A stretch of DNA of 20,565 nt from a virus. Shown here piece by piece: positions 891-5,102 of this stretch. Made by a program: the position numbers and the translations under genes. The notes under the pieces were generated by a model. That model did no database searches. It was not told the DNA's origin and saw nothing but the letters and a program-made list of their open reading frames with translations. Numbering within the stretch: the stretch's first letter is position 1; the number at the start of each line of letters is the position of its first letter. The stretch lies in UHGV virus genome UHGV-0070025; one strand, given 5' to 3'.

Positions 891-1708
891 AACTGGAAGA
901 TTTACCGAAATACTACTCCCCAAAATCCCCTGGCCTGACCGATGCATCGGCCTCAACGTCAAAAGATGCGCTGAGTATCACTGATGTGATGGCCGCGCAG
1001 GGCATGACACAGAATCGGGCTGAGATGGGGTTTTCTGCGTTCCTGGGGAAAATGGGCATCAGTATGAATGACAGGGCGCGGGCAACAGAATTACTGGCAG
1101 ATTATGCACTCAGTCGGTGCGATCGTGTGGCGGCGTTGAGAAAACTTCCGGCAGAAATAAAACCGGTAGTGATGCGCATTATGGCTTCGTATGCGTTTGA
1201 AGATTATGCCCGTAGCGCGGCGAGCAAAAAACAGTGCCCTTGCTGTCACGGAAAAAAATTTATTGAAAGCGAGGTTTTTACAAACAAGATCCAGTATCCG
1301 GATGGTAAGCCACCAGTGTGGGCAAAGTGCACAAAAGGCGTGTATCCGTCTTACTGGGAAGAATGGAAAAAAGTCAGGGAGGTGGTAAAAGTTGCCTGTC
1401 CGGAGTGTGGCGGAAAGGGTGAGGTTTCCACCGCCTGTAAGGATTGCCGTGGGCGTGGTGTCGCCATTCATCGTGAAGAGTCGGTAAAACGTGGTATGCC
1501 TGTTATCAGAGATTGCCAGCGTTGTGGTGGTCGTGGCTGTGAAAGGCTGCCATCAACGGAGGCATTTAATGCCATATGCAAAGTGACGAGTGCTATCACG
1601 CTTGATACGTGGAAAAAATCAGTGAAACGCTTTTACGATACGTTGGTGGTTCGGTTTGACATTGAAGAGGCATGGGCGGAGCGGCAGTTAAAGAGGGTAA
1701 CGCGATAG
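887..1708 (+). CDS. late-gene antitermination protein Q homologue with Cys-rich zinc-finger region
   Basis: 273 aa; ATGA start/stop overlap with rusA; four CxxCxGxG-like repeats (CPCCHGKK, CPECGGKG, CKDCRGRG, CQRCGGRG); lies immediately upstream of a pR'-like promoter and short terminator, the canonical Q position. Confidence 0.65.
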   Translation: MKLEDLPKYYSPKSPGLTDASASTSKDALSITDVMAAQGMTQNRAEMGFSAFLGKMGISMNDRARATELLADYALSRCDRVAALRKLPAEIKPVVMRIMASYAFEDYARSAASKKQCPCCHGKKFIESEVFTNKIQYPDGKPPVWAKCTKGVYPSYWEEWKKVREVVKVACPECGGKGEVSTACKDCRGRGVAIHREESVKRGMPVIRDCQRCGGRGCERLPSTEAFNAICKVTSAITLDTWKKSVKRFYDTLVVRFDIEEAWAERQLKRVTR

Positions 1709-1710
1709 TG

Positions 1711-1760
1711 TTGTTGATTTTTCCCGAATCTGTGGTAAATTTGCTCTAACGATGGGCGTT
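1711..1760 (+). promoter_or_regulatory. late promoter pR'-like with putative Q-utilisation/pause region
   Basis: GGTAAATTTGCTCTAACGATGGG (1733-1756) closely resembles the lambda pR' -10 and initial transcribed region as I recall it (GGGTAAATTTGACTCAACGATGGG); candidate -35 TTGATT at 1714-1719. Confidence 0.55.
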
Positions 1761-1787
1761 TTATGCCTGACGTTAGAAGATTTTTTA

Positions 1788-1812
1788 CACCCCGCCGCCT
1801 GGCGGGTTTTTT
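1788..1812 (+). terminator. intrinsic terminator (tR'-like) about 40-60 nt downstream of the pR' start
   Basis: CCCGCC-GCCT-GGCGGG hairpin followed by TTTTTT. Confidence 0.75.
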
Positions 1813-1932
1813 ATGACTGAAATCGCGTCAGTACAGTAAACGCGCTGGTGGCGGTGAATACCTGTCTTTCAGCTTGCTGGCTTTTTCGACAAGAGTTATT
1901 GGTGTGTCACGTTAACCGGAAAAGGAAAAGAC

Positions 1933-2130
1933 ATGCTAAAACAGCAGGATATGACAGAAACCGCCAGAGTGGTGTTTAATGAATTAAGCGTTACCGACCC
2001 GGCGACAGTCGGGGAGATAGCGCAGAATACTTACCTTTCACGCGAACGCTGCCAGTTAATACTGACTCAGCTGGTTATGGCGGGTCTGGCAGACTATCAG
2101 TTCGGTTGTTACAGACGCCTTCCGCAGTGA
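1933..2130 (+). CDS. small hypothetical protein, possible helix-turn-helix
   Basis: 65 aa; AAGGAAAAG RBS 6 nt upstream of ATG; segment TVGEIAQNTYLSRERCQLIL looks HTH-like; stop codon sits inside a terminator hairpin. Confidence 0.5.
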   Translation: MLKQQDMTETARVVFNELSVTDPATVGEIAQNTYLSRERCQLILTQLVMAGLADYQFGCYRRLPQ

Positions 2131-2144
2131 AGGCTTTTTTATTT
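2117..2144 (+). terminator. intrinsic terminator
   Basis: GCCTTC-cgcagt-GAAGGC hairpin followed by TTTTTTATTT. Confidence 0.7.
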
Positions 2145-2158
2145 GTGGTAAATGGGCG

Positions 2159-2187
2159 GCTGGTGGGTGTTAGGGGCACCCACCAGC
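2159..2187 (+). promoter_or_regulatory. 11-bp perfect stem hairpin following a second TGTGGTAAAT motif
   Basis: GCTGGTGGGTG-ttagggg-CACCCACCAGC; no U-tract; directly preceded by TGTGGTAAAT (2144-2153), identical to the pR' -10 region at 1731-1740. Confidence 0.35.
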
Positions 2188-2280
2188 CATCTGCTCATGC
2201 GTCCGGATCACAAGCAAACCTCAGGCCCACTGCTTTGCGCAAAAGCAGAATGAGCCTATCAGAGACAGGCTTAATGATCC

Positions 2281-3365
2281 ATGCTTAATACTGTAAAAAT
2301 ATCCAGTTGTGAGTTAATCAACGCCGACTGCCTGGAATTTATCCGGTCGTTACCCGAAAATTCTGTTGACCTGATAGTCACGGACCCGCCGTACTTTAAA
2401 GTGAAGCCTGAGGGCTGGGATAACCAGTGGAAGGGCGACGATGATTACCTGAAGTGGCTGGACCAGTGTCTGGCGCAGTTCTGGCGGGTGCTGAAACCTG
2501 CCGGAAGTCTTTACCTGTTCTGTGGTCATCGCCTGGCATCTGATATCGAAATCATGATGCGTGAACGCTTCAGTGTGCTGAACCATATTATCTGGGCGAA
2601 GCCGTCCGGACGCTGGAACGGATGCAACAAGGAAAGGCTGCGGGCGTATTTCCGTGACTAAACAAGGAAGGGCGGGGGGCTTTTTCCCCCGCCACAGAGC
2701 GCATTCTGTTCGCGGAACATTATCAGGGGCCGTATCGTCCGAAAGATGCCGGGTATGCGGCGAAGGGCAGTGCACTGAAACAGCATGTGATGGCCCCGCT
2801 GATTTCTTACTTTCGTGATGCGCGCGCGGCCCTGGGGATAACGGCAAAACAGATTGCAGATGCCACAGGAAAGAAAAACATGGTGTCGCACTGGTTCAGT
2901 GCCAGTCAGTGGCAGCTACCGAATGAAAGCGATTATCTGAAATTACAGGCGCTGTTTGCCCGGGTGGCAGAAGAGAAGCATCGGCGTGGTGAACTGGAAA
3001 AGCTCCACCACCAGCTGGTGGATACGTATACCTCACTGAACCGGCAGTATGCGGAGCTGCTGAGTGAATATAAACATCTGCGGCGGTATTTTGGCGTGAC
3101 GGTGCAGGTGCCGTATACCGATGTGTGGACGCATAAACCGGTGCAGTTCTATCCCGGGAAACATCCGTGCGAAAAACCGGCAGAAATGCTGCAGCAGATA
3201 ATCAGCGCAAGTAGCCGTCCTGGTGATCTGGTTGCGGATTTTTTCATGGGGTCGGGTTCAACGGTAAAAGCGGCGATGGCACTGGGGCGTCGTGCGATTG
3301 GTGTTGAGCTGGAGACCGGACGTTTTGAGCAGACAGTCAGGGAAGTTCAGGATTTAATCGTTTGA
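2281..3365 (+). pseudogene. beta-class (DPPY...FxGxG) DNA N6-adenine/N4-cytosine methyltransferase, interrupted between the two halves
   Basis: N-terminal part (2281-2661, frame 1) carries motif IV LIVTDPPY. C-terminal part (frame 3, open from 2658, ORF-track start 2787, to 3365) carries motif I DFFMGSGST. Frame 1 stops at TAA 2659-2661; frame 3 has TGA at 2655-2657. The halves cannot be joined without a frame change. Confidence 0.75.
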
Positions 3366-3414
3366 AACGGATGAGATTGCAGAATTAATTACGCACCATT
3401 ATTATTCTGCTCCC

Positions 3415-3490
3415 GGCCCTTTAGCTCAGTGGTGAGAGCGAGCGACTCATAATCGCCAGGTCGCTGGTTCAAATCCAGCAAGGGCCACCA
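3415..3490 (+). tRNA. tRNA with anticodon CAT (Ile2-lysidine or Met type)
   Basis: 76 nt cloverleaf: acceptor GGCCCTT/AAGGGCC, D-arm GCTCAGTGGTGAGAGC, anticodon loop CTCATAA, T-loop TTCAAAT, 3' CCA encoded. Matches the ileZ position of Stx-type phages. Confidence 0.9.
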
Positions 3491-3497
3491 TCACATA

Positions 3498-3574
3498 CCG
3501 CCATTAGCTCATCAGGATAGAGCACCAGCCTTCGAAGCTGGTTGCGCGGGGTTCGAGTCCTCGATGGCGGTCCA
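3498..3574 (+). tRNA. tRNA-Arg (anticodon TCG)
   Basis: 77 nt: acceptor CCGCCAT/ATGGCGG, anticodon stem CCAGC/GCTGG with loop CTTCGAA, T-loop TTCGAGT, CCA encoded. Confidence 0.85.
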
Positions 3575-3587
3575 TTATCTGTACCCT

Positions 3588-3664
3588 GCGTTGTTAGCTC
3601 AACCGGACAGAGCAATTGCCTTCTAAGCAATCGGTCACTGGTTCGAATCCAGTACAACGCGCCA
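3588..3664 (+). tRNA. tRNA-Arg (anticodon TCT)
   Basis: 77 nt: acceptor GCGTTGT/ACAACGC, anticodon stem ATTGC/GCAAT with loop CTTCTAA, T-loop TTCGAAT, CCA encoded. Confidence 0.9.
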
Positions 3665-3678
3665 GACTTATTTTTCCC

Positions 3679-3704
3679 GGCTCGCTTTTGCGGGCCTTTT
3701 TTTT
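3679..3704 (+). terminator. intrinsic terminator after the tRNA cluster
   Basis: GGCTCGC-tttt-GCGGGCC stem (one G.U pair) followed by T8. Confidence 0.7.
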
Positions 3705-3710
3705 AAATGT

Positions 3711-3925
3711 CTCACAATTCAGACGGTTGACAGTTGTCTGTTTTGCGGGGAGTTTGTTAAAAGAAACTGGCATGGTGAATCCCCCTGTGCGGATGGGCAA
3801 TCAGCGAGTAGGTATATGGGATAATCGCGGATTCAGGTGCTGGTACTGAATTCACCGGGAGGCACCCGGCACCATGCAATGGCACATAGCGCCACTCTCC
3901 AGCCCCTCTCCGGAGGGGCTTTTCT
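3711..3925 (+). ncRNA. candidate structured small RNA, tandem unit A
   Basis: Begins with CTCACAATTCAG then TTGACA; shares conserved blocks with unit B (TTTGTTAAAA, GCATGGTGAATCCCCCTG, CACCGGGAGGCACCCGGCACCATG); ends in terminator GCCCCTC-tccg-GAGGGGC + TTTTCT (3902-3925). No convincing ORF. Confidence 0.35.
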
Positions 3926-4114
3926 GTGCCGGATACATCACAGTTTCTGGAACCTTAGGTACTACAGTATCAGTCAGGGTGCTATATTTTCAGATGTGAT
4001 GAAAGCCTGTCAGCAGGCAGGGCGTATCGGAAATGACCCAGTAGAGAAAACGTTGACTCAGATACCGGTGCTGAGTTACCGGGAAACCGGCATCACATGA
4101 CCGCTATCCTTCCA

Positions 4115-4141
4115 GGCCCATCCGCTCCGGTGGGCCTTTTT
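4115..4141 (+). terminator. intrinsic terminator
   Basis: GGCCCA...TGGGCC stem followed by TTTTT. Confidence 0.55.
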
Positions 4142-4178
4142 ACTGCAGAAAACAGGTTCCCCGTTAAATGCTATGTTG

Positions 4179-4412
4179 CTCACAATTCAGTAAGTTGACA
4201 GTTGCCTGTCAGACTGGGCATTTGTTAAAAAAATTTCGCATGGTGAATCCCCCTGAGCGGAGGGGCGACTGGTGACGGTATAATCTCTGATTATCAAAAC
4301 GAGAATGACGCGGGTTTAGTGGCACCGGGCTGAACTCACCGGGAGGCACCCGGCACCATGTGCATGATGATACAGATACGCGGCTTTAGCCCCTCTCCGG
4401 AGGGGTTTTCTT
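4179..4412 (+). ncRNA. candidate structured small RNA, tandem unit B (paralogue of unit A)
   Basis: Same block order as unit A, 468 bp downstream; contains a perfect TATAAT at 4279-4284; ends in terminator GCCCCTC-tccg-GAGGGG(T) + TTTTCTT (4389-4412). Confidence 0.35.
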
Positions 4413-4417
4413 GTGGG

Positions 4418-4447
4418 CAAAAAAAGCCCGCGCTGGGAGACGCGGGC
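4418..4447 (-). terminator. minus-strand intrinsic terminator, back-to-back with the unit B terminator
   Basis: On the minus strand: GCCCGCG-tctcccag-CGCGGGC followed by TTTTTTT (the plus-strand A-run at 4418-4425). Confidence 0.45.
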
Positions 4448-4640
4448 GGCAAGGAATAAACAATAAAACGTGAAGTAATATTTCAGCTGGCGAATAATAC
4501 CCCATAGTAATCACTCTGCGCAACTGCGCGGTCTTTTTCGAATTGCGGGCTGTCGTCTCTCTTCTGCCATTGTCCTGTAACTTCCGGACTTCAGCCCGCT
4601 CCTTATTTTACTCACAATATTATCCCGGCCGGGAGGATTC

Positions 4641-4868
4641 ATGGCATTTAAACACTATGACGTGGTCAGGGCGGTATCGCCGTCAGACCTTGCGAAACGA
4701 CTGACACAAAAACTGAAGGAGGGCTGGCAGCCGTTTGGTAGTCCGGTGGCCATAACCCCTTATACCCTGATGCAGGCGATTGCAGCAGAAGGTGATGTGG
4801 TGGTCAGTGGTGCAACTGAGCCGGATTGGTACTACGTCATCGTACTGGCCCGGCATTCCAGGCCATAA
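4641..4868 (+). CDS. small phage protein, DUF1737-like
   Basis: 75 aa; GGGAGG RBS 5-6 nt upstream of ATG; pattern YDVV..S.SDLAKRL..KL.EGWQPFG resembles DUF1737 as I recall it (unverified). Confidence 0.6.
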   Translation: MAFKHYDVVRAVSPSDLAKRLTQKLKEGWQPFGSPVAITPYTLMQAIAAEGDVVVSGATEPDWYYVIVLARHSRP

Positions 4869-5072
4869 AAGACAGTCTGGCAGTGGGACTAAATGCACTG
4901 ACGCTGATGGATATTACCAAAAATGTAACGTATGGCGTTGAGATAGAAAGTCTGGCGCTGGAGATAAATGCACCGGCATCATCATAAAAAGTGAGCCAGT
5001 CAAATGGAAGGTATCGTTAAACTCACCGGTAGTGTCAGTGGGTCGTCTGAGACGCTTGCATGAGTTATCAGA

Positions 5073-5102
5073 GCCATCAGTAGTTAACTGGTGGCTTTTT
5101 TA
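5073..5102 (+). terminator. intrinsic terminator just upstream of the lysis cassette
   Basis: GCCATCAG-tagttaa-CTGGTGGC (one G.U pair) followed by TTTTTTATTGTTTT. Confidence 0.65.

Follow-up and report, generated by a model that had tools for sequence, protein, structure and literature searches.

The question raised by this locus is what kind of genes follow the tRNA cluster of a virus genome (UHGV-0070025; the window denotes the whole stretch of 20,565 nucleotides that was analysed), where an earlier note had described two paralogous units as duplicated small-RNA genes of an unnamed family rather than protein genes. The two units are real, and every motif listed for them was recovered: CTCACAATTCAG at 3711-3722 and 4179-4190, from which the 468-bp offset of the units follows, TTGACA at 3727 and 4195, TTTGTTAAAA at 3753 and 4221, GCATGGTGAATCCCCCTG at 3770 and 4238, GGTATA at 3811 and 4277 with TATAAT at 4279, CACCGGGAGGCACCCGGCACC at 3853 and 4337, and GCCCCTCTCCGGAGGGG at 3902 and 4389, with a T-run after each. 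Units 1 and 2 share 81% column identity over 270 alignment columns, and the covariance-model E values of 7.5e-29 (unit 1) and 1.1e-36 (unit 2) indicate a resemblance far beyond chance. Conservation between them proceeds in blocks, as had been claimed, with identities of 27/29 in P1-P2, 24/25 in the terminator and 19/47 in the variable region; outside the latter, the linker is the least conserved segment (15/29). The strong terminator ascribed to each unit was called by a terminator scan at 3901-3920 and 4388-4407, and in both units its hairpin is a near-copy of P2.

The 253 bp between the two confirmed units, previously regarded as a spacer, are not empty. They contain a third, diverged copy (unit M), so that the locus comprises three tandem units (Table 1). 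Unit M gives a sub-threshold match to Rfam STnc100 (3970-4143, 30.1 bits, E 6e-4) and scores 40.3 bits on our own core model, for which its sequence was, however, part of the seed alignment. It keeps all helices via compensatory changes, its MFE fold has the same architecture (z -2.63), and about 10 of 100 viral loci have a unit of this type between canonical ones. The units have a common layout: a promoter-like element precedes a structured core of some 110 nt, and the core is joined to an intrinsic terminator by a short linker, which varies from unit to unit. Our main reading, to which we assign a probability of roughly 70%, is that the locus consists of three tandem STnc100-family sRNA genes (units 1, M and 2; about 156, 150 and 175 nt) plus a fourth, convergent gene, and that the RNAs are Hfq-associated and linker-seeded.

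Table 1. Features of the tandem sRNA locus, with positions in the window
Feature	Position	Strand	Details
tRNA cluster (CAT, TCG, TCT anticodons) and terminator (3679-3696)	3415-3696	+	directly 5' of unit 1
Unit 1, conserved upstream block (CTCACAATTCAG-N4-TTGACA)	3711-3732	+	identical in unit 2 (4179-4200) and the Sp5 copy; upstream of the likely promoter
Unit 1, putative promoter	3734-3763	+	-35-like TTGTCT 3734-3739; TG-extended -10-like TGTTAAAAG 3755-3763
Unit 1, predicted sRNA, ~156 nt	3770-3925	+	Rfam STnc100 130.4 bits; own core model 94.4 bits
Unit 1, helices		+	P1 3770-3777/3870-3877; P2 3782-3797; P5 3855-3869
Unit 1, pseudoknot		+	segment A 3800-3806; A' 3838-3844 in loop of helix B 3829-3836/3846-3853
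Unit 1, 3' part		+	linker 3878-3900; terminator 3901-3920 and U-tract
Unit M, -10-like hexamer TATATT	3983-3988	+	5 nt 5' of unit M P1; position relative to P1 as elsewhere in the family
Unit M, predicted sRNA, third diverged copy, ~150 nt	3994-4143	+	core 3993-4102; terminator 4114-4137 and U-tract
Unit M, P1		+	AUGUGAUG 3994-4001 / CAUCACAU 4091-4098
Unit M, P2 and P5		+	P2 CCUG/CAGG; P5 CCGG-GAAA-CCGG
Unit M, pseudoknot		+	A UAUCGG 4025-4030; B 4054-4061/4071-4078; A' CCGGUG 4065-4070 in B loop
Unit 2, upstream block and putative promoter	4179-4231	+	CTCACAATTCAG 4179-4190; TTGACA 4195-4200; -35-like TTGCCT 4202-4207; TGTTAAAAA 4223-4231
Unit 2, predicted sRNA, ~175 nt	4238-4412	+	Rfam STnc100 161 bits; own core model 95.3 bits
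Unit 2, helices		+	P1 4238-4245/4354-4361; P2 4250-4265; P5 4339-4353
Unit 2, pseudoknot		+	A CUGGUG 4269-4274; B 4312-4319/4330-4337; A' CACCGG 4323-4328 in B loop
Unit 2, variable hairpin		+	contains TATAAT
Unit 2, 3' part		+	linker 4362-4387; terminator 4388-4407 and U-tract
Convergent partner sRNA gene, predicted	4420-4523	-	-35 TTGCGC 4523-4518; -10 TATTAT 4499-4494; RNA ~4487 to 4420
Partner sRNA terminator	4447-4426	-	followed by 7 U; terminator scan

In a structure search against Rfam, which had been proposed as a check, units 1 and 2 are full-length matches to RF02076 (STnc100; model positions 1-206 of 206), with 130.4 bits (3741-3931) and 161 bits (4209-4418), respectively, against a gathering score of 47 bits. 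These matches, the covarying helices and the lack of a coding signal all support the earlier reading of the units as small-RNA genes. The locus is of an already catalogued kind of prophage sRNA, the relatives of EcOnc27/sRNA103 and PasD, and Bakta and similar Infernal-based annotators label such copies STnc100. Nothing essential separates units 1 and 2 from RF02076, with which they share helices, prophage context and terminator; the structure line of the Rfam match, however, contains neither the pseudoknot nor a transcription start at P1. Unit M differs from the family in falling below the gathering score and in its altered conserved loops (GAUGAAAGCC; P5 loop GAAA).

The STnc100 core folds into a four-way junction, and covariation supports a pseudoknot in which the segment that follows P2 (A) pairs with the loop of helix B (A'). 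Across 44 diverse cores, with slid partners and 500 shuffles as controls, 86.9% of the cells are paired, compared with 40-48% for slid partners, and 22 of 32 pairs change on both sides, a level reached by none of the 500 shuffles (compensatory pairs: 7/8 in P1 and 6/8 in B). Covariation supports the closing helix and the P2, B and P5 hairpins, and all helices can be formed in all three window units. P1, B, P5 and the terminator are all present in the MFE fold of unit 1 (z -2.39), and in that of unit 2 the 3' strand of P2 is paired to the 5' strand of the terminator. The mean energy of a core's own A/A' duplex is -9.44 kcal/mol, versus -5.52 kcal/mol with mismatched partners (0/5000 permutations), and 71 of 80 representatives have a pseudoknot of 6-9 bp, usually 6-7, with 67 different sequences of A. 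This duplex-energy permutation test was used in place of a column-wise count on the MAFFT alignment, in which only 60.6% of the pseudoknot cells are paired because the loop register shifts between sequences. The unpaired nucleotides of the core are very highly conserved (GGUGAAUC, P2 loop GCGG, P5 loop AGGCA). The core is widespread in many Enterobacterales genera. Three contexts were seen for it: followed by a terminator, immediately 5' of ORFs that have a Shine-Dalgarno sequence, and in back-to-back arrays (Pantoea plasmid L201); terminator-less arrays and ORF-preceding cores occur in other genera, including non-phage contexts. Most phage loci have one unit only. Of 65 phage units, 58 have a terminator; the median distance from core to terminator is 28 nt. 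With a core that contains a covariation-supported pseudoknot and extends far beyond prophages, the function of the family is open to experiment.

The boxes listed in the earlier note, TTGACA together with GGTATA/TATAAT, were rejected as promoter elements on account of their spacing and their position within the RNA. TTGACA is separated from the conserved -10-like block by 24 nt, too great a distance for its -35, and GGTATA/TATAAT lies inside the RNA, in the variable hairpin, without conservation in the family as a whole. The position of the promoter-like element in each unit would instead put the transcription start at the first P1 base. Relative to the P1 start, the -10-like hexamers of 78 non-redundant homologues are concentrated between -15 and -7, and the putative promoter of unit 1 is at the same distance from P1 as the PasD1 promoter; in PasD1, the RNA-seq 5' end coincides with the first G of GCAUGGUG, and the 3' end is in the U-tract. 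The candidate promoters are non-canonical (TAAAAG/TAAAAA, without T at position 6), and a consensus promoter scan of the window gave no call for unit promoters. The PasD target motif CUCACA is present at the start of each unit, upstream of the presumed start site and as a 6-mer only.

The locus corresponds to the 'moron' slot of lambdoid prophages, with the order Q, pR'/tR', methylase, three tRNAs, sRNAs, convergent minus-strand sRNA and lysis genes. The Q gene (PF03589) at 887-1708 is directly followed by a pR'-like promoter, a promoter-proximal -10-like pause element (TAAATT...TAACGAT) and tR' at 1713-1806, indicating that the late operon is Q-dependent. A DUF1737 region (4641-4868) and, further downstream, holin and lysozyme genes complete the prophage context of STnc100, with Q/pR' on its 5' side and the lysis genes on its 3' side. 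ARAGORN and Rfam identified three genuine tRNAs at 3415-3664, the same cluster as ileZ-argN-argO of Stx phages, and neither called a tRNA-like cloverleaf at the units; a tRNA-like nature of the units was not supported. In the Stx2 phage VT2-Sakai/Sp5, the slot order is tRNAs, stx2AB, STnc100 (EcOnc27) and AsxR, whereas in the window stx2AB is absent and units 1 and M are in its place. This synteny bears out the earlier claim that the units occupy the stxAB locus; it had been overlooked that Stx2 phages have an STnc100 copy in addition to stx. On the one hand, STnc100 is already catalogued and Hfq-CRAC, RIL-seq and Northern blots have detected homologues, so that the locus as found adds little. 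On the other hand, non-Stx lambdoid prophages of extraintestinal E. coli have up to three STnc100-type genes and a convergent sRNA at the toxin-gene position, and the regulatory-RNA cargo of the slot therefore exceeds the RefSeq annotation, which has only 'hypothetical protein' there. The strains UTI89, S88 and IHE3034 have a sequence nearly identical to this prophage, at about 99%.

Unit 2 is the positional counterpart of EcOnc27/sRNA103 of Sp5/933W (Tree et al. 2014; Gruber & Sperandio 2015). The upstream block, the core type (A = CUGGUG), the convergent sRNA and the downstream DUF1737 region are common to both, and the unit 2 upstream sequence is nearly identical to that 5' of EcOnc27/STnc100 in VT2-Sakai. 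The linker and terminator sequences differ, however, so the targets probably differ as well. EcOnc27/sRNA103, a copy 3' of stx2B, was detected by Hfq-CRAC and Northern blot (PMC4104026, PMC7873438, PMC12711010); the STnc100 copies of EDL933 are transcribed according to RNA-seq, with STnc100_4 visible on a Northern blot (PMC5331693); and the only functional report for a homologue is that sRNA103 raises fimZ and espA transcripts (PMC7873438). PasD1 and PasD2 of EPEC E2348/69 (Pearl Mizrahi et al. 2021; Zhu, Shabalina & Storz 2026 preprint) resemble the window units in promoter, P1, P2, pseudoknot domain, seed linker and terminator, and are likewise located between Q and the holin gene. They are structural homologues with RIL-seq targets (PMC8550237; bioRxiv 10.64898/2026.05.13.724894), and a PasD Northern blot has been reported (PMC8550237). 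PasD differs in its score on the STnc100 model (37.7 bits, compared with 130-161 for window units 1 and 2), its shortened P5 and its longer linker with the seed UGUGAG. This seed is absent from the linkers of units 1, M and 2, which by this mark do not belong to the PasD subfamily.

By analogy with these homologues, the units would be trans-acting, Hfq-associated base-pairing sRNAs with the seed in the variable linker. In the lysogen, each unit would be transcribed from its own sigma-70 promoter and end at its own terminator, as extrapolated from PasD1/2 and EcOnc27/sRNA103; the stable structured core could protect the RNA, and the single-stranded linker between core and terminator would supply the seed that base-pairs, on Hfq, with mRNAs of the host or the prophage. 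The linkers differ between the three units, which suggests that the copies target different sets of mRNAs. In lytic growth, all the terminators would probably be passed by Q-modified polymerase that starts at pR' (about 1713). The U-tracts of the window units are short, with 4-5 U (UUUUCU, UUUUCUU and UUUUUA), and a short U-tract is weak for classical Hfq proximal-face binding. In PasD, the seed sits in the linker between core and terminator (PMC8550237; bioRxiv 10.64898/2026.05.13.724894). PasD1 and PasD2 changed little in an hfq mutant versus wild type (log2FC -0.18 and +0.55), while PasA-C dropped (PMC8550237 RNA-seq table), and Hfq may therefore not be essential.

Other explanations of the units were weighed against this reading. 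Small proteins could be sought in an 87-aa ORF at 3837-4100, a 33-aa spacer ORF or antisense 'hypothetical proteins', since mechanical ORFs exist at 3616-3849 and 3837-4100, the RefSeq annotation of UTI89 has, on the strand opposite to unit 1, a 'hypothetical protein' marked as partial and pseudo, a 399-nt antisense ORF is annotated over PasD1, and the EDL933 copy STnc100_10 has appreciable ribosome footprints (RCV 3.21; PMC5331693). Ribosome coverage is, however, low for most EDL933 copies (PMC5331693), and neither strand is open across a unit in any frame, which agrees with the earlier statement that no convincing ORF is present. Stops occur in all six frames of each unit, indels are frequent among homologues, the substitutions reveal no three-base periodicity (variable sites by codon phase 35/41/37, 10/9/13 and 39/41/36), and conservation tracks base-paired columns. 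A protein-coding nature was rejected and has next to no probability in our judgement. The same holds for the view that the units are late leader RNAs of the pR'-tR' type (lambda 6S RNA, StxS), that is, Q-utilisation modules duplicated downstream. Those leaders are likewise short terminated late-region transcripts of lambdoid phages, each unit combines a promoter with a short terminated transcript in the late region, and StxS shows that such leaders can be sRNAs (PMC7873438). They arise at pR' after Q, however, and the real pR'-like module of the window immediately follows Q, at 1713-1806 and thus 2 kb 5' of the units at 3711-4412, which are without a pause element and have relatives in non-phage contexts; this view was also rejected.

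The units might also matter in cis, as a terminator stack that insulates the lysis cassette from tRNA/early-region read-through in the lysogen and that only Q-modified polymerase would pass, with the RNAs as by-products. The terminator scan called four plus-strand terminators between the tRNAs and the lysis genes (3679, 3901, 4114 and 4388) and one more at 4516, and the pR'-like promoter, pause element and tR' upstream fit such a role. A terminator requires neither a conserved 110-nt pseudoknotted core nor a promoter of its own, however; homologues are found as discrete RNAs in high abundance and in chimeras with targets (PMC5331693, PMC8550237), and most phage loci have a single unit. This explanation is quite improbable. 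Somewhat more credit, though still as an unlikely alternative, goes to the core itself being the functional part: a pseudoknotted four-way junction that would serve as sensor, decoy or scaffold by binding a protein or a small ligand, with linker and terminator as the output platform and tandem copies comparable to tandem riboswitches or multiple decoy sites. The core is more conserved and pseudoknotted than a base-pairing sRNA needs and also stands before ORFs and in arrays, which hints at another activity; its unpaired nucleotides are very highly conserved while the helices covary, the pseudoknot reaches 6-9 bp, the distribution covers many Enterobacterales genera and three contexts, and the P2-like terminator of units 1 and 2, with the P2-terminator pairing of unit 2, might form a switch. 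Yet the core has no Rfam match to a known riboswitch or protein-binding RNA family (riboswitch models gave none in the window at gathering score and none in 1650-5100 at E up to 5), the genes 3' of the cis-type copies (KdgM porin, lipoprotein-like, unknowns) are mutually unrelated, as would not be expected of a typical riboswitch regulon, other genera do not generally share the P2-like terminator, and the homologue PasD acts as a seed-pairing sRNA in RIL-seq. If the core were such an uncharacterised domain, specific for a protein or metabolite and re-used as a module before seeds, before ORFs and in arrays, these prophage sRNAs would be signal-responsive or protein-guiding regulators, not simple base-pairing RNAs.

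For the preferred reading, the fourth gene completes the locus: a minus-strand gene follows unit 2, so that the pair forms the 'sRNA dyad' described for EHEC prophages. AgvB and AsxR (Tree et al. 2014) belong to the same moron slot, and the minus-strand sRNA is in the AsxR position, with an upstream region common to both; the plus-strand units, in contrast, are three times longer and structurally unrelated. Membership in the AgvB/AsxR families (RF02702, RF02703), which are defined by RNAs of about 51-60 nt whose 3' region is conserved over about 42 nt, was rejected, as no match to them was obtained in 1650-5100 at E up to 5, and AsxR was found in Sp5 at 88.1 bits. PasB was considered as the identity of the minus-strand sRNA and rejected, since the PasB probe sequence does not match; another EPEC candidate matches instead, with the 3' part of the minus-strand sRNA nearly matching the RIL-seq sRNA candidate E2348C_1409.E2348C_1408.IGR.

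Every motif that the earlier note had described at 3711-4412 was found by direct reading in both of its units, at their coordinates and 468 bp apart, behind a three-tRNA cluster and terminator as it had reported. Searched against Rfam 15 at gathering thresholds, the whole window yielded five matches, namely the three tRNAs and two full-length matches to RF02076 (STnc100; gathering score 47), which supports the reading as duplicated small-RNA genes. Units 1 and 2 share 81% identity over 270 alignment columns, and the blockwise conservation claimed for them is evident: identity is 27/29 from the closing helix P1 through hairpin P2, 42/54 from hairpin B to the P1 3′ strand and 24/26 in the terminator, versus 15/29 in the linker between core and terminator and 19/47 in the variable region. 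Both units are thus real, but their count has to be raised, because the supposed spacer is occupied by an STnc100-like match (unit M) found when 1650-5100 was scanned permissively. Judged by eye and with a purpose-built core model, unit M has P1 (AUGUGAUG/CAUCACAU), P2 (CCUG/CAGG), helix B (UGACUCAG/CUGAGUUA), hairpin P5 (CCGG-GAAA-CCGG) and a loop-to-upstream pairing (UAUCGG/CCGGUG); every helix is retained via compensatory changes, and folding the single sequence by MFE leads to the same architecture. Its score on the core model, 40.3 bits, is not independent since unit M is among the 44 seed-alignment sequences. Since unit M fills the spacer with all helices kept, there are three tandem units rather than two. 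A protein-coding reading was ruled out, in agreement with the non-coding claim: variable sites among homologues are spread evenly over the codon phases (35/41/37, 10/9/13 and 39/41/36), indels are frequent, and stops occur in every frame on both strands.

Features of the locus and its neighbourhood, in gene order
Feature	Position	Details
RusA		first in the gene order
Q antiterminator	887-1708	PF03589
pR′-like promoter and terminator	~1713-1806	directly after Q; TTGATT, then TAAATT; terminator 1791-1806
Small ORF		between pR′-like module and methyltransferase
DNA methyltransferase	2316-3365	broken by a 35-bp deletion relative to UTI89 at ~2654-2660
Three tRNAs	3415-3664	ARAGORN; followed by the three STnc100 units
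Terminator (scan)	3679-3696	after tRNAs
Unit 1, STnc100 match	3741-3931	130.4 bits, E 7.5e-29
Unit 1, putative promoter	3755-3763	TGTTAAAAG; TTGTCT 17-18 nt upstream
Terminator (scan)	3901-3920	
Unit M, STnc100-like match	3970-4143	30.1 bits, E 6e-4
Unit M, -10-like element	3983-3988	TATATT
Terminator (scan)	4114-4137	in supposed spacer; end of unit M match
Unit 2, STnc100 match	4209-4418	161 bits, E 1.1e-36
Unit 2, putative promoter	4223-4231	TGTTAAAAA; with TTGCCT
Terminator (scan)	4388-4407	
Candidate convergent sRNA gene	4420-4523	minus strand; tail-to-tail with unit 2; RNA ~4487 to 4420, about 67 nt
DUF1737, holin, lysozyme		downstream of convergent RNA

The earlier observation is therefore correct, and the analysis supports its interpretation. 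The elements belong to a family that had already been curated and sampled by experiment, and their genomic arrangement has been described before as the "convergent sRNA pair in the moron site 3′ of PR′" (Tree et al. 2014, PMC4104026; review PMC7873438). In the Stx2 phage VT2-Sakai (Sp5), the slot contains tRNAs, stx2A, stx2B, an STnc100 copy (207.7 bits), the anti-sRNA AsxR on the opposite strand and then the same DUF1737-type region as in the window. Units 1 and M sit at the place held there by stx2AB, as the stxAB-slot claim had it, and unit 2, with the same upstream block and core type as the Sp5 copy, is therefore the positional counterpart of EcOnc27. The Sp5 copy, which follows stx2B, overlaps EcOnc27 (sRNA103), an Hfq-bound sRNA whose over-expression raised fimZ and espA transcripts (PMC12711010; PMC7873438), and it was also detected in STEC outer-membrane vesicles (PMC12370729). 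Of the 11 STnc100 copies in EDL933, most are transcribed but show little ribosome coverage, and STnc100_4 was confirmed by Northern blot (PMC5331693). PasD1 and PasD2 of EPEC, discovered by RIL-seq and Northern blot (PMC8550237), are structural homologues of STnc100 according to a 2026 preprint (10.64898/2026.05.13.724894); we confirmed the relationship, with PasD1 scoring 37.7 bits on the Rfam model and having the same architecture. Our analysis adds the family name and the third copy, corrects the boundaries of promoters and transcripts, matches the positions in the slot with those of stx2AB, EcOnc27 and AsxR, and describes the pseudoknotted core and how widely it occurs in Enterobacterales.

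A reading of the TTGACA and TATAAT boxes as promoter elements was rejected, as TTGACA lies 24 nt from the -10-like block and TATAAT falls inside the RNA, within a variable hairpin. According to its RNA-seq-derived coordinates (1060260-1060432), PasD1 begins at the first G of GCAUGGUG and runs to the end of the U-tract. Among 78 non-redundant homologues, -10-like hexamers cluster in the interval -15 to -7 relative to the first base of P1 (55 occurrences versus a background of 1-3 per position), and canonical -35/-10 pairs can be read directly at the corresponding position in other genera. The promoter-like elements of units 1, M and 2 are weak by consensus and received no call in the promoter scan, and for this reason the start sites at ~3770, ~3994 and ~4238 are only inferred. 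The block conserved upstream of units 1 and 2 opens with CUCACA (3711-3716 and 4179-4184), the target-site motif enriched among RIL-seq targets of PasD1/2 (seed UGUGAG); lying upstream of the presumed start, it would be present in RNA only through read-through or late transcription and may be a chance match.

For the core fold, 134 unique cores were extracted and reduced to representatives below 85% identity, of which 44 were aligned. Standard pairs occupy 86.9% of cells versus 40-48% with partners slid by 1-3 columns, both sides change in 22 of the 32 pairs, and none of 500 shuffles reached any observed pairing measure. Compensatory pairs account for 7/8 in P1 and 6/8 in helix B; P5 is invariant, partly because it was required by one collecting scan. 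In almost all sequences the stretch that directly follows P2 (A) can pair with one in the helix B loop (A′). The complementarity extends over 6-9 bp in 71 of 80 representatives, and A takes 67 different sequences (AUCAGCG/UGCUGGU in unit 1 and CUGGUG/CACCGG in unit 2; UAAUGAC/GUCAUUG, CUGGCU/AGCCAG and AGGCUAC/GUAGCCU outside the window). The mean duplex energy is -9.44 kcal/mol for own pairs versus -5.52 for mismatched partners; the own-pair value was reached by 0/5000 permutations, which ignore relatedness. Given the order A, B, A′, B′, this pairing is a pseudoknot. About 1 nt links A′ with B′ and 1-3 nt link it with B, and by our own steric argument the geometry would be like that of a kissing loop. 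The pairing is absent from the structure line of the Rfam STnc100 match, and no mention of a pseudoknot was found in the cited literature on the family. In units 1 and 2 the terminator hairpin (GCCCCUCUCCGGAGGGGC; 3902-3918, 4389-4405) nearly duplicates P2 (CCCCCUGUGCGGAGGGGC; 3782-3797, 4250-4265), a likeness not shown by terminators of other genera. When unit 2 is folded by MFE, the terminator 5′ strand pairs instead with the P2 3′ strand, a possible alternative conformation.

Of 5426 complete E. coli genomes, 2853 were matched by Megablast with 3665-4450 as the query, and 352 of these have a near-complete three-unit arrangement; the 352 are mainly extraintestinal strains such as UTI89, S88 and IHE3034, and RefSeq annotates only "hypothetical protein" at the locus. 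Exact-pattern scans located the core in 120 IMG/VR contigs and in representative genomes of species from many Enterobacterales genera, among them Salmonella, Klebsiella, Enterobacter, Citrobacter, Kosakonia, Pantoea and Erwinia, and an Rfam scan confirmed STnc100 in most of 18 loci tested. Among 100 viral loci most have one unit, ~10 have the U1-UM-U2 triple and one has four; an IMG/VR contig carries four STnc100-type units within 1 kb (L006, 2322-3351). Plasmid pAPP145_2 of Pantoea sp. App145 has a tandem array with five exact P5 motifs within ~800 bp (L201 ~890-2010, L181), several of its cores without terminators between them. A variant of the core (GGUGAAUGCGGCU...GCGCACGCG), whose closing helix is extended, falls below the STnc100 gathering score (L123, L126, L147, L148, L160, L199 and L228) and often lies 30-50 nt before a Shine-Dalgarno sequence and a small ORF, these ORFs being unrelated. 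L213 has a canonical core ~80 nt ahead of a KdgM-family porin gene; the downstream sequence is similar in L139 and its relatives.

Three independent sRNA genes are the best-supported reading. Each unit would start with a stable, structured core at its 5′ end, continue with a short single-stranded linker of variable sequence and finish with an intrinsic terminator; the linker would serve as the seed, as in PasD, whose seed lies in its linker, and the units would act in trans with Hfq. Against an Hfq-dependent role count the short U-tracts of the window units and the abundance of PasD, little changed in an hfq comparison (PMC8550237, table S2), while the conservation and complexity of the core, far more than base pairing by an sRNA would need, count against a simple sRNA. 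As the core is also found immediately before ORFs with Shine-Dalgarno sequences, upstream of a KdgM-family porin gene and in terminator-less arrays on the Pantoea plasmid, it may instead, though less probably, be a protein- or ligand-binding module. Insulation of the lysis genes in the lysogen must be a further effect of the stacked terminators, but alone it explains neither the conserved core nor the promoters of the units.

The minus-strand candidate, putatively an Hfq-type small RNA, has a -35 (TTGCGC), a -10 (TATTAT) and a strong terminator followed by 7 U. It occupies the position of AsxR in Sp5 and shares with it the upstream CGCGCAGTTGCGCAG, but the RNA body differs, and no AgvB or AsxR match was found within 1650-5100. 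Its 3′ part is a near-match to the EPEC RIL-seq candidate E2348C_1409.E2348C_1408.IGR (seed CUUGCG).

Upstream, the pR′-like module, which also has a -10-like, promoter-proximal pause element (TAACGAT), closely resembles lambda pR′/tR′; it would yield a ~75-nt leader RNA analogous to lambda 6S RNA or StxS. The deletion in the methyltransferase divides it into ORFs 2281-2661 and 2787-3365, and identity to UTI89 drops from 99.96% upstream to 97.8% downstream of it, which suggests a mosaic junction. The tRNA at 3415-3490 was called Met (anticodon CAT) by ARAGORN, and its orthologue is annotated as tRNA-Ile (ileZ) in RefSeq and phage records, which makes it a lysidine-modified tRNA-Ile2 type.
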